Shown here one piece after another: positions 1,381-4,155 of a stretch of DNA of 4,155 nt. The DNA is taken from the IMG/VR virus record IMGVR_UViG_2565956624_000015. One strand, 5' to 3'. The first letter of the stretch is position 1, and each line of letters begins with the position of its first letter. The translations under genes and the position numbers were made by a program. Source of the DNA: a virus. Lineage: Duplodnaviria > Heunggongvirae > Uroviricota > Caudoviricetes. The notes under the pieces are model-generated. The model saw only the letters and a program-made list of their open reading frames with translations, was not told the origin of the DNA and did no database searches.

Positions 1381-1487
1381 AATCCGTTGAAGCCTGCTTT
1401 TTTATACTAAGTTGGCATTATAAAAAAGCATTGCTTATCAATTTGTTGCAACGAACAGGTCACTATCAGTCAAAATAAAATCATTAT
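1381..1487. other. attL: Lambda attL (B-O-P'): host arm, 15-bp core 1396-1410, phage P' arm
   Basis: CCGTTGAAGCCTGC (host B arm as in E. coli attB), then core GCTTTTTTATACTAA, then GTTGGCATTATAAAAAAGCATTGCTTATCAATTTGTTGCAACGAACAGGTCACTATCAGTCAAAATAAAATCATTAT, which is the P' arm of lambda attP. The sequence right of the core is phage (GTTGGCATT...), not the host continuation CTTGAGCG. Confidence 0.92.
1435..1487. promoter_or_regulatory. P' arm protein-binding sites: IHF H' site (about 1435-1448) and Int arm-type sites P'1-P'3 (about 1457-1487)
   Basis: TATCAATTTGTTG fits the IHF consensus WATCAAnnnnTTR. AGGTCACTAT, CAGTCAAAAT and AAATCATTAT fit the Int arm-type consensus (C/A)AGTCACTAT. Site boundaries are approximate. 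Confidence 0.65.
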
Positions 1488-2554
1488 TTGATTTCAATTT
1501 TGTCCCACTCCCTGCCTCTGTCATCACGATACTGTGATGCCATGGTGTCCGACTTATGCCCGAGAAGATGTTGAGCAAACTTATCGCTTATCTGCTTCTC
1601 ATAGAGTCTTGCAGACAAACTGCGCAACTCGTGAAAGGTAGGCGGATCCCCTTCGAAGGAAAGACCTGATGCTTTTCGTGCGCGCATAAAATACCTTGAT
1701 ACTGTGCCGGATGAAAGCGGTTCACGACGAGTAGATGCAATTATGGTTTCTCCGCCAAGAATCTCTTTGCATTTATCAAGTGTTTCCTTCATTGATATCC
1801 CGAGAGCATCAACATGCAATGTTGTTGGGATGGCAATTTTTACGCCTGTTTTGCTTTGCTCGACATAAAGATATCCATCTACGATATCAGACCACTTCAT
1901 TTCGCATAAATCACCAACTCGCTGCCCGGTAACAACAGCCAGTTCCATTGCAAGTCTGAGCCAACATGGTGATGATTCTGCTGCTTGATAAATTTTCAGG
2001 TATTCGTCAGCCGTAAGTCTTGATCTCCTTACCTCTGATTTTGCTGCGCGAGTGGCAGCGACAGGGTTTGTTGTTATATGGCCTTCAGCTATTGCCTCTC
2101 GGAATGCATCGCTCAGTGTTGATCTGATTAACTTGGCTGACGCAGCCTTGCCCTCGTCTATGTATCCATTGAGCATTGCCGCAATTTCTTTTGTGGTGAT
2201 GTCTTCAAGTGGAGCATCAGGCAGACCCCTCCTTATTGCTTTAATTTTGCTCATGTAATTTATGAGTGTCTTCTGCTTGATTCCTCTGCTGGCGAGGATT
2301 TTTTCGTAGCGATCAAGCCATGAATGTAACGTAACAGAATTATCACTGTTGATTCTCGCTGTCAGAGGCTTGTGTTTGTGTCCTGAAAATAACTCAATGT
2401 TGGCCTGTATAGCTTCAGTGATTGCTATCCTCCTGTCTCTGCCTAATCCGAACTCTTTACCCGTCCTTGGGTCCCTGTAGCAGTAATATCCATTGTTTCT
2501 TAAATAAAGGTTAGGGGGTAAATCCCGGCGCTCATGACTTCGCCTTCTTCCCAT
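1484..2554 (-). CDS. int: Lambda integrase (tyrosine site-specific recombinase)
   Basis: 356-aa ORF MGRRRSHERRDLPPNLY...HLLGHKSDTMASQYRDDRGREWDKIEIK, recognised as lambda Int (tyrosine-recombinase H-x-x-R...Y catalytic region near the C-terminus). Stop codon lies inside the P' arm, as in lambda. Confidence 0.97.
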   Translation of the reverse strand: MGRRRSHERRDLPPNLYLRNNGYYCYRDPRTGKEFGLGRDRRIAITEAIQANIELFSGHKHKPLTARINSDNSVTLHSWLDRYEKILASRGIKQKTLINYMSKIKAIRRGLPDAPLEDITTKEIAAMLNGYIDEGKAASAKLIRSTLSDAFREAIAEGHITTNPVAATRAAKSEVRRSRLTADEYLKIYQAAESSPCWLRLAMELAVVTGQRVGDLCEMKWSDIVDGYLYVEQSKTGVKIAIPTTLHVDALGISMKETLDKCKEILGGETIIASTRREPLSSGTVSRYFMRARKASGLSFEGDPPTFHELRSLSARLYEKQISDKFAQHLLGHKSDTMASQYRDDRGREWDKIEIK

Positions 2555-2750
2555 TTCTGATCCTCTTCAAAAGGCTACCTGTTACTGGTCGATTTAAGTC
2601 AACCTTTACCGCTGATTCGTGGAACAGATACTCTCTTCCATCCTTAACCGGAGGAGGGAATATCCTGCATTCGCGCACCCATCGACGAACTGTTTCAAGG
2701 CTTCTTGGGCGTCGCTGGCGAGCGTTCCACTCCTGAAGAGTCAAGTACAT
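2532..2750 (-). CDS. xis: Lambda excisionase
   Basis: 72-aa ORF MYLTLQEWNARQRRPRSLETVRRWVRECRIFPPPVKDGREYLFHESAVKVDLNRPVTGSLLKRIRNGKKAKS, recognised as lambda Xis. The 3' end overlaps the int start by 23 nt (2532-2554), as in lambda. Confidence 0.95.
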   Translation of the reverse strand: MYLTLQEWNARQRRPRSLETVRRWVRECRIFPPPVKDGREYLFHESAVKVDLNRPVTGSLLKRIRNGKKAKS

Positions 2751-2776
2751 CGCAAAGTCTCCGCAATTACACGCAA
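2730..2776 (-). promoter_or_regulatory. pI promoter region with cII-binding direct repeats TTGC-N6-TTGC (2763-2776) just upstream of the xis ATG
   Basis: Minus strand reads TTGCGTGTAATTGCGGAGACTTTGCGATGTACTTGAC. TTGCgtgtaaTTGC is the cII recognition motif flanking the -35 of pI. The -10 and transcript start then fall inside xis, so the pI transcript encodes Int without Xis (established lambda biology). I did not assign exact -10 coordinates. Confidence 0.7.
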
Positions 2777-2777
2777 G

Positions 2778-2800
2778 AAAAAACCGCCATCAGGCGGTTT
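2778..2800 (-). terminator. Putative intrinsic terminator between the 55-aa ORF and the pI/xis region
   Basis: Minus strand AAACCGCC-TGAT-GGCGGTTT is an 8-bp stem with a 4-nt loop, followed by TTTCTT. The TGA stop of the 55-aa ORF sits in the loop. Confidence 0.5.
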
Positions 2801-2957
2801 GGTGTTCTTTCAGTTCTTCAATTCGAATATTGGTTACGTCTGCATGTGCTATCTGCGCCCATATCATCCAGTGGTTATAGCAGTCGTTGATGTCCTCGGC
2901 TTCGATAACTCTGTTGAATGGTTCTCCATTCCATTCACCTGTGACTCGGAAGTGCAT
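2790..2957 (-). CDS. Small hypothetical protein, 55 aa (matches my recollection of lambda 'ORF-55' between xis and ea8.5)
   Basis: Hand translation of the minus strand: ATG at 2955-2957, TGA at 2790-2792, giving MHFRVTGEWNGEPFNRVIEAEDINDCYNHWMIWAQIAHADVTNIRIEELKEHQTA. GGAG lies 7 nt upstream of the ATG. Not in the supplied ORF track, probably because it is below the length cutoff. Confidence 0.6.
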   Translation of the reverse strand: MHFRVTGEWNGEPFNRVIEAEDINDCYNHWMIWAQIAHADVTNIRIEELKEHQTA

Positions 2958-3014
2958 TTATCATCTCCATAAAACAAAACCCGCCGTAGCGAGTTCAGAT
3001 AAAAGAAATCCGCA

Positions 3015-3467
3015 TTAAGCGGCGTCGGTGAATTCAAATAAAAAACCGGCTTGCGCCGGCTCTCTCATCTTTCTGTCTACCCATGCTGATATCGATGGCG
3101 GATGCACCTTTTCAATAGCAGCGCGAAGTACAGCTGTACGTGCCAGTTTGTCGGTAATCTCAGGAAATCGCTTCTCTGTCTTCGGTACGTTAACAGCAAC
3201 ATTAGTAGAATCCGCACTGGCGAACGGATACATACCAAGAACTCTCACGTCGAGCATTCGAAGACCATGAATTTTCACTTTCAAATTACGATTGATATAA
3301 ATCTCAGTAAAAACTTCATCCATTCTCTGTTCCCACCATTTAGAGCGTATGTGCCTGTGTGGGCCGCAGCATCCAATCGCCACCCATTCAAATTTTCCAG
3401 AAAGGCGTAAAAGACGTTCAATTGATTCGTCGTATGCCAGACCGGAACCGCTTTTGATTTTAGCCAA
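3015..3467 (-). CDS. Hypothetical protein (ORF B), no family recognised; possibly the out-of-frame C-terminal part of a frameshifted gene, or a shorter gene starting at the internal ATG 3321-3323
   Basis: 150-aa track ORF that begins at a TTG directly after an in-frame TGA. The first ATG in frame is at 3321-3323 (102 aa) with GGTGGG 8 nt upstream. It overlaps ORF A by 187 nt in the -1 frame. Confidence 0.4.
   Translation of the reverse strand: MAKIKSGSGLAYDESIERLLRLSGKFEWVAIGCCGPHRHIRSKWWEQRMDEVFTEIYINRNLKVKIHGLRMLDVRVLGMYPFASADSTNVAVNVPKTEKRFPEITDKLARTAVLRAAIEKVHPPSISAWVDRKMREPAQAGFLFEFTDAA
3036..3059 (-). terminator. Putative intrinsic terminator hairpin embedded in the 3' end of ORF 3015-3467
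   Basis: Minus strand CCGGC-GCAA-GCCGG (5-bp GC stem, 4-nt loop) followed by TTTTTTATTT. It lies within the last ~15 codons (…REPAQAGFLFEFTDAA) of the 150-aa ORF. Confidence 0.45.
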
Positions 3468-3814
3468 TCAGGAACCAACTCAATCTGCTCGTCGTTTTCT
3501 GCCTCTGTCCCTTCGATAACGTCAGGTATAAGAAACCATTCAATTCTGCTGAACCACTTCCCAACAAAGTCGTAGAATTTTGCTCGTCTCTTACTCCAGT
3601 CTACCGGAGTGCCTTTCTTTAATGCTTTCATCCAGTCGCTAAAAGCGCCGTTATCAAGGCGTATATCACAAGGGAACATGGCAATCTTTTTCATCTGCTC
3701 TGGTCTGGCAAATGAAACAAAAGCCCCACTATCACGGTAAAGGGCTTTAATAAGCATATCTGTAGGGGCATGCTCATCACCCCATATTGGGCTGCCGTGA
3801 AAGTGGATGGTCAT
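3281..3814 (-). CDS. Hypothetical protein (ORF A), 177 aa, no family recognised; accessory (moron-like) gene
   Basis: ATG at 3812-3814 with GGGGA 5 nt upstream. N-terminus MTIHFHGSPIWGDEHAPTD; no signal peptide or obvious transmembrane segment. The last ~60 codons overlap ORF B in another frame. Confidence 0.55.
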   Translation of the reverse strand: MTIHFHGSPIWGDEHAPTDMLIKALYRDSGAFVSFARPEQMKKIAMFPCDIRLDNGAFSDWMKALKKGTPVDWSKRRAKFYDFVGKWFSRIEWFLIPDVIEGTEAENDEQIELVPDWLKSKAVPVWHTTNQLNVFYAFLENLNGWRLDAAAHTGTYALNGGNREWMKFLLRFISIVI

Positions 3815-3872
3815 ATTATCCCCATATAAAAGAAATACCCGCGAGTGCGAGGATTGTTATGTAATATTTGGT

Positions 3873-3997
3873 TTAATCATCTATATGTTTTGTACAGAGA
3901 GGGCAAGTATCGTTTCCACCGTACTCGTGATAATAATTTTGCACGGTATCAGTCATTTCTCGCACATTGCAGAATGGGGATTTGTCTTCATTAGACT
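3873..3997 (-). pseudogene. ea8.5: 3' remnant of lambda ea8.5, truncated by IS1 insertion
   Basis: Minus-strand frame ending at TAA 3873-3875 encodes ...SNEDKSPFCNVREMTDTVQNYYHEYGGNDTCPLCTKHIDD, which matches the C-terminal ~40 residues of lambda Ea8.5 as I recall it. The match stops exactly where IS1-like sequence begins (3998). No start codon is in frame, and the frame hits TGA at 4086-4088 inside IS1. Confidence 0.65.
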
Positions 3998-4155
3998 GGT
4001 AATGGTGCCAACTTACTGATTTAGTGTATGATGGTGTTTTTGAGGTGCTCCCGTGGCTTCCATCTCCATCAGTTGTCCCTCCTGCTCAGCTACTGAAGGC
4101 GTGGTGCGTAACGGTAAAAGTACTGCCGGACATCAGCGCTATCTCTGCTCTCACT
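3998..4155 (+). mobile_element. IS1 insertion sequence, left end (left inverted repeat about 3998-4020); element continues beyond the window
   Basis: GGTAATGGTGCCAACTTACTGATTTAGTGTATGATGGTGTTTTTGAGGTGCTCC... closely matches the IS1 left terminal repeat and leader as I recall them (IS1A: GGTGATGCTGCCAACTTACTGATTTAGTGTATGATGGTGTTTTTGAGGTGCTCCAGTGGCTTC...). Several substitutions indicate a divergent IS1 isoform. Confidence 0.85.
4053..4155 (+). CDS. insA: IS1 InsA (transposition regulator / N-terminal part of the InsAB' transposase), 5' partial
   Basis: GTG at 4053, then [33 protein letters not shown], which matches the InsA N-terminus ([37 protein letters not shown] as I recall it), including the CxxC zinc-finger motif. 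Confidence 0.8.

Follow-up and report, generated by a model that had tools for sequence, protein, structure and literature searches.

What occupies the additional DNA that separates orf55 from ea8.5 in a lambda-like prophage, when the same two genes are spaced by only 88 bp in phage lambda? The question is raised by a stretch of 4,155 nucleotides (nt) from a Caudoviricetes record (IMG/VR IMGVR_UViG_2565956624_000015), which is referred to in its whole length as the window and in which a lambda-like prophage, integrated at attB beside ybhC, is represented by its left end. In the window the orf55-ea8.5 spacer measures 915 bp (positions 2958-3872). A preliminary description of this DNA, made from the letters alone, had judged roughly 827 bp of the spacer to be extra relative to lambda, had found two open reading frames (ORF A and ORF B) in it, and had proposed the segment as a candidate for an undescribed function. 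The analysis presented here shows that the extra DNA carries a single, broken gene. The gene very probably encodes a singleton DpdA, a compact triosephosphate isomerase (TIM)-barrel enzyme of the tRNA-guanine transglycosylase (TGT) superfamily, which when intact would exchange bases in phage DNA and which has been inactivated in the window copy.

The extent of the extra DNA was defined by BLASTN alignment with the lambda genome (NC_001416). Window positions 1396-3011 align to lambda 27724-29339 with 98.2% identity and positions 3823-3997 align to lambda 29324-29498 with 97.7% identity. Between these two blocks the offset of one sequence relative to the other shifts by exactly 827 bp, as had been estimated, and 16 lambda bases are common to both junctions. 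The landmarks behind that estimate are likewise where they had been placed: the restriction sites GGATCC (1644-1649), GAATTC (3030-3035) and ATCGAT (3091-3096), and the ea8.5 stop codon, which begins at 3873 (3873-3875). ORF A, of 177 codons, and ORF B are also present as they had been described. The extra DNA is bounded by an 11-bp direct repeat, ATAAAAGAAAT, the left copy of which lies at 2999-3009 and the right copy at 3826-3836; lambda has one copy only, of slightly different sequence (ATAAAATAAAT). Read on the minus strand, the right copy forms the T-tract that comes after the hairpin behind ea8.5; the Shine-Dalgarno sequence (GGGGA) and ATG start codon of the inserted gene lie just downstream of it. 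The cassette is therefore placed, as observed, inside a terminator-like spacer and is flanked by a short duplicated sequence. This junction pattern is what short-homology recombination between mosaic lambdoid genomes would give, and the preferred model is one in which a one-gene accessory cassette would have been inserted into the short orf55-ea8.5 spacer at a short repeated AT-rich sequence.

The identity of the inserted gene follows from its match to phage HK106. Window positions 1396-3860 align with the HK106 genome at 98.1% identity with a single gap (BLASTN), and the gene in question is 98% nucleotide-identical to HK106 gp29 across 801 nt, the single gap being one of 1 nt. The HK106 gp29 protein (YP_007151699, 266 amino acids) is named "queuine tRNA-ribosyltransferase" in RefSeq, and Hutinet et al. 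(2019; PMC6884629) enter it in the DpdA column of their Supplementary Data 1, without any other pathway gene, as a member of the "DpdA-only" group. Both in the window and in HK106 the gene comes first beyond xis and orf55, with the same left junction. The two differ in that HK106 has an intact gene and the window one that is a base short and split; in addition, gp29 is followed by a 29-amino-acid ORF (gp30) and a DUF4752 gene, whereas the window copy is followed by ea8.5.

Consistent with this assignment, the PHROG 887 family ("queuine tRNA-ribosyltransferase") matches both halves of the split gene, ORF A with an E value of 5.7e-50 over profile positions 10-142 and ORF B with an E value of 8.6e-46 over profile positions 135-318. 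The same family also matches the validated DpdA of Enterobacteria phage 9g (E 2e-98) and HK106 gp29 itself (E 9e-102). The preliminary description was thus right that accessory DNA with a split gene is present, and wrong about its novelty: the segment is a confident match to HK106 gp29, a prophage gene that is annotated in RefSeq and listed as a DpdA in PMC6884629, and what the window holds is a pseudogene. The literature already covers the gene family, its occurrence in HK106 and its likely chemistry. The guess that this accessory position beyond xis would hold something from the sphere of defence or anti-defence was nearer the mark, as the gene between orf55 and ea8.5 is of a DNA-modification type.

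In the window the gene is represented by an 800-nt copy (3015-3814, minus strand) of an 801-nt gene that encodes a 266-amino-acid singleton-type DpdA, a TGT-like DNA guanine transglycosylase. In ORF A (3281-3814, minus strand, 177 amino acids) the N-terminal 127 codons of dpdA, with those for D54, D98 and H127, run into a tail of 50 codons that are out of frame. In ORF B (3015-3467, minus strand, 150 amino acids) 11 out-of-frame codons precede the C-terminal 139 codons, which start at D128, are in the -1 frame and contain the one for D202, the putative nucleophile. Pairwise alignment to HK106 locates a 1-bp deletion at 3432/3433, directly after the H127 codon, where CATACCGAC has become CATACGAC; this is the sole indel in the alignment. 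On the plus strand the window reads TCGTATG at this point, and HK106 and the intact Escherichia coli alleles read TCGGTATG. The preliminary description had entertained a frame-corrected fusion of the two ORFs, and restoration of one base does indeed yield one gene of 266 codons. Its product differs from those of the intact alleles by 3-5 substitutions, none of which is at a conserved position, and no non-conservative change is seen at the invariant positions after frame correction.

Sequencing error was considered as the cause of the frameshift and was rejected, as the affected site is a CC dinucleotide and not a long homopolymer, and as at least 11 complete E. coli genomes, which come from several laboratories, have the 800-nt allele with 100% identity. 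Overall, the dpdA gene is found in 82 of 5,426 complete E. coli genomes, most of which carry the intact 801-nt form. We conclude that the frameshift is a recent inactivating mutation that has been inherited by one lineage. As a result of the 1-bp deletion the window copy has no intact single-chain frame containing all of the catalytic residues. Because D54, D98 and H127 are in one reading frame and D202 is in the other, this copy cannot act, and it is most likely dead.

Homologues of the intact protein numbered 2,230 at E < 1e-3, and 51 diverse examples were aligned as a family profile. When this profile was compared with that of the 9g DpdA family using hhalign, the two were matched with 96.2% probability (E 2.5e-9) over 151 columns, with the motifs LDNGAFS/LDSGAFS, PVWH/PCFH, HGL/HGF and SADS/SCDS (window family/9g) in register. 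The protein has the TGT-type (beta/alpha)8 barrel fold. The residues D54, N55, D98, H127, H183, D189 and D202 are invariant in all 51 homologues. The acid/base motif D54-N-G-A-F58, in which D54 is present in 51/51 and F58 in 49/51 sequences, is aligned with LDSGAF of 9g DpdA; D202 (SADS), which lies in ORF B in the window, is aligned with SCDS; and H127 is aligned with H141 of the 9g protein.

The roles of the putatively equivalent residues are known from bacterial DpdA (bDpdA). There the general acid/base is Asp95, with Phe99 stacking on the base; base recognition falls to Asp130 and His181, and Asp256, as nucleophile, enters into the covalent enzyme-DNA intermediate (PMC10164549). In the hhalign register the 9g aspartate D114 stands opposite E101 and not opposite the invariant D98, and either D98 or E101 is a candidate counterpart of bDpdA Asp130. 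The base-recognition histidine (His181 of bDpdA) is conserved but is lacking in DpdA2.

The window family differs from bDpdA in its architecture. The enzyme of the Dpd restriction-modification system of Salmonella Montevideo (PDB 7UI4) is 413 amino acids long, contains four insertions including the 128-residue Ins8, and needs the DpdB ATPase; Ins8 is pinned by a CXCX2CX22H zinc site (PMC10164549). In contrast, members of the window family have 266 amino acids, 147 fewer than 7UI4, lack CXCX2CX22H and have no dpdB or dpdC neighbour. The structural zinc-site motif is likewise absent from 9g DpdA. Since both the zinc motif and the insertion are missing, as in the 9g protein, the sequence indicates a DpdA of phage type, as opposed to a TGT or a bacterial DpdA. 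With the window family, phage DpdA1 (Enterobacteria phage 9g and CAjan) shares the PHROG, the aligned catalytic motifs and the lack of a zinc-site motif; it has ~20% identity to that family and modifies about 25-30% of guanines.

Closer relatives are found in phages whose DNA has been analysed. The DpdA of Salmonella phage 7-11 is 58% identical and that of Pantoea phage vB_PagS_MED16 is 43% identical to the window family protein, in both cases over nearly the full length and with the same motifs. The virion DNA of phage 7-11 contains dADG (2'-deoxy-7-amido-7-deazaguanosine) at ~50 per 10^6 nucleotides. The DNA of MED16, which encodes only dpdA and whose DpdA is matched by HHpred to Thermotoga maritima TGT at 99.2%, also contains dADG. 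In all, 7-deazaguanine nucleosides are present in the DNA of the relatives 7-11, MED16, 9g and CAjan. Phages 7-11 and MED16 resemble the window element in having no preQ0 synthesis genes; they differ from it in that both are virulent phages with measured DNA, whereas the window gene belongs to a temperate lambda-type prophage and is broken.

If a singleton enzyme is to modify DNA, its 7-deazaguanine must come from elsewhere. Neither preQ0 synthesis genes nor a gene for the YhhQ transporter were found in the window or in the matching prophage, and it is this lack of 7-deazaguanine supply genes that defines the "singleton" group. Expression of 9g DpdA alone in E. coli leads to 2'-deoxy-preQ0 (dPreQ0) in plasmid DNA (PMC6884629), which indicates that the host preQ0 pool is sufficient for a DpdA. 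The same authors suggested that the DpdA-only group may rely on host preQ0 and noted that its modification status is hard to predict (PMC6884629).

Taken together, these comparisons lead to a proposal for the intact enzyme. It would exchange selected guanines in double-stranded phage DNA by the double displacement typical of the TGT superfamily, with D54 (LDNGAF) acting as general acid/base, and the intermediate would be resolved by a 7-deazaguanine base, either preQ0 or a derivative. As the phage encodes no preQ0 synthesis genes, this base would be supplied by the host queuosine pathway. Of the promoter and terminator that a lambdoid moron, an autonomous accessory cassette, would bring with it, a terminator-like hairpin is present at the 3' end of dpdA (3040-3065), but no sigma-70-like promoter was found upstream in a consensus scan, which is weak evidence. 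The cassette resembles a passenger carried along in the leftward early operon. Given the lack of a promoter-like site of its own and its place at the distal end of that operon, the gene would be expected to be expressed during lytic growth under antitermination and not in the lysogen. The outcome would be a low-level marking of progeny DNA, which may, presumably, afford some protection from host nucleases.

Several points weigh against this reading and have to be set beside it. In the literature searched there is no experiment on HK106 gp29 or on any lambdoid or temperate-phage singleton DpdA, and the DpdA-only subgroup may have diverged functionally (PMC6884629). The correspondence of D54, D98, H127 and D202 to bDpdA residues is a predicted one, derived from the 9g motif alignment and from the literature. 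The 266-amino-acid protein contains neither the CXCX2CX22H motif nor the Ins8/zinc subdomain, and there is no cysteine after D202. Neither ORF A nor ORF B nor the intact HK106 protein found a match in Pfam, NCBIfam, PADLOC or PDB sequences (E up to 1-10 for TGT/DpdA models), and the 51-sequence profile drew nothing from the PDB beyond a chance match (E 1). These empty searches are weak counter-evidence: the validated 9g DpdA is equally invisible to Pfam and PDB sequence searches, and the negatives from those sources consequently carry little weight. The protective role is uncertain, because the singleton phages that have been tested show very little modification and because MED16 DNA is still cut by most of the restriction enzymes tried. 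It is conceivable, though rather unlikely, that the lambdoid singleton DpdAs have diverged to place a rare, sequence-specific, host-derived mark (dADG, for example) on temperate-phage DNA for a purpose other than anti-restriction. If this were true, the rare mark could evade or trigger a particular defence system, or serve in self-marking, and repeated loss of the gene in lysogens, as in the window, might reflect a cost of carrying it.

The evidence also bears on whether DNA is the substrate at all. On its fold alone, a TGT-like enzyme might act on a non-DNA target, either host or phage tRNA, as do TGT and ArcTGT, or a protein, as does Cap10 of the cyclic oligonucleotide-based antiphage signalling system (CBASS), which attaches a 7-deazaguanine derivative to a CD-NTase. 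TGT, ArcTGT and Cap10 have extra domains, however, and show no sequence-level match to the window family, the sequence relatives of which are phage DpdAs. The zinc subdomain of TGT and ArcTGT and their C-terminal RNA-binding domains are missing from the protein, and no gene for a QueC-like Cap9 or a CD-NTase is nearby. Moreover, close relatives come from phages with dADG in their DNA, and one relative, of 76% identity, is joined to a DNA methylase. A tRNA or protein substrate is therefore judged improbable. It is more improbable still that the protein is a TIM barrel functionally unrelated to the transglycosylases, to which the DpdA label has been over-extended. The absence of a curated Pfam or NCBIfam model and of a PDB sequence match would fit such a case, as would the Foldseek ranking, in which aldolases and PdxJ stand above DpdA, but the aligned motifs and the gene context both argue for a transglycosylase.

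The status of the window copy itself admits one further interpretation, namely that the gene works despite the split, by programmed -1 frameshifting or as two polypeptides that reassemble into one TIM barrel. In favour of this, the frameshifted allele is kept at complete identity in at least 11 genomes, with no further lesions, and the two ORFs have 187 nt in common. Against this, the allele differs from the majority 801-nt form by a simple deletion, and the identical copies are most simply accounted for by one recent clonal lineage. No slippery heptamer of the type X XXY YYZ is present between the upstream stop codon in the ORF B frame (~3470) and the deletion, and a slip upstream of the deletion would replace the invariant residues P124, W126 and H127. 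For a separate ORF B polypeptide the only start, as assigned mechanically, is a TTG with no evident Shine-Dalgarno sequence. A working split gene is accordingly regarded as extremely unlikely, and the reading of the window copy as an inactivated singleton dpdA is preferred.

The wider family of the gene is seen in comparable surroundings. In Shigella phage SfI and in the P22-like phage BTP1 it takes up the corresponding position, with the recombination genes on one side and xis/int on the other. In E. coli 2014C-4587 (L005, 4620-7366) the order orf55-dpdA-ea8.5 is found beside a different integrase/excisionase pair, at the sbcB locus; the orf55-dpdA-ea8.5 block therefore moves among lambdoid prophages independently of the integration module. 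In the 76%-identical relative mentioned above (P0006, 460 amino acids) the DpdA domain is fused to a Dam DNA adenine methylase (Pfam E 4e-58). Directly upstream of P0006, with a 4-nt overlap, is a gene with a recorded Vut_1 match, the two lying in a prophage early region (contigs L012 and L013, 4540-6383). The Vut_1 family includes the preQ0 transporter YhhQ. Judged by sequence, the Vut_1 gene and the DpdA-Dam fusion look like a compact two-gene DNA-modification module; no description of this pair was noticed in the literature examined. A 48%-identical homologue from a Vibrio phage overlaps a gene annotated as a putative preQ0 transporter, the Vut_1 score of which (21.3) is below the 27.2-bit Pfam cut-off. 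The Dam fusion and the transporter linkages tie the subfamily to DNA and to 7-deazaguanine supply.

The remainder of the window is laid out as the left end of such a prophage would be. First comes ybhC of E. coli (66-1349, minus strand), then the attachment core of lambda, GCTTTTTTATACTAA (1396-1410), and after it int (1484-2554) and xis (2532-2750), both of lambda type and both on the minus strand. The left flank of the cassette is a homologue of lambda orf55 (lambdap35; 2790-2957, minus strand), which belongs to PHROG 676, a family of unknown function. The right flank is the C-terminal part of ea8.5 (3873-3997, minus strand; Pfam Lambda_ea8_5, E 1.8e-21, profile positions 43-90). This gene is cut at 3997/3998 by an IS1 terminus, which extends from 3998 to the window end at 4155 and is 91% identical to the IS1 end in phage PhiR11_1_star (BLASTN), such that only the C-terminal 41 codons of ea8.5 are left. 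The IS1/ea8.5 junction together with the dpdA allele occurs in none of the complete E. coli genomes of the collection, from which the IS1 insertion is taken to be specific to the source strain of the window. An ea8.5 gene cut by IS1 next to a broken dpdA fits a decaying prophage.

Hairpins are a recurrent feature of this region. Two of those around the cassette are also present in lambda, a short hairpin downstream of ea8.5 (3838-3851, minus strand) and a terminator-like hairpin between the insert and orf55 (2977-2996, minus strand). A further, strong terminator-like hairpin with a T-run lies within the last dpdA codons (3040-3065, minus strand) and has an 11-pair stem with 5 GC pairs. The codons over it encode a disordered tail, REPAQAGFLFEF, in which the predicted local distance difference test score is below 50 (residues 256-266). 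The cassette thus seems to carry its own terminator inside its coding sequence. Elsewhere, a bidirectional terminator-like hairpin, AAACCGCCATCAGGCGGTTT, is located between xis and orf55 (2781-2800) and is likewise found in lambda. Over positions 2700-4155 as a whole terminator-like sites are over-represented, with 6 found and 1.1 expected.

As a discovery the value of the locus is small, since the gene is of a known kind and the copy is most likely dead. What it does expose is an annotation gap. The NCBI Prokaryotic Genome Annotation Pipeline labels the intact E. coli copies (~70 complete genomes) "hypothetical protein"; with this label, and with Pfam, NCBIfam, PADLOC and PDB searches empty, the gene is anonymous in routine annotation, which accounts for its having been passed over at first sight. 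Among the curated model libraries searched, only PHROGs catches either this subfamily or 9g DpdA, and genome scans will keep flagging the gene as unknown. For the family itself, HK106 and these E. coli prophages offer a tractable system in which to ask whether host preQ0 is diverted into the DNA of a phage, and to what effect.

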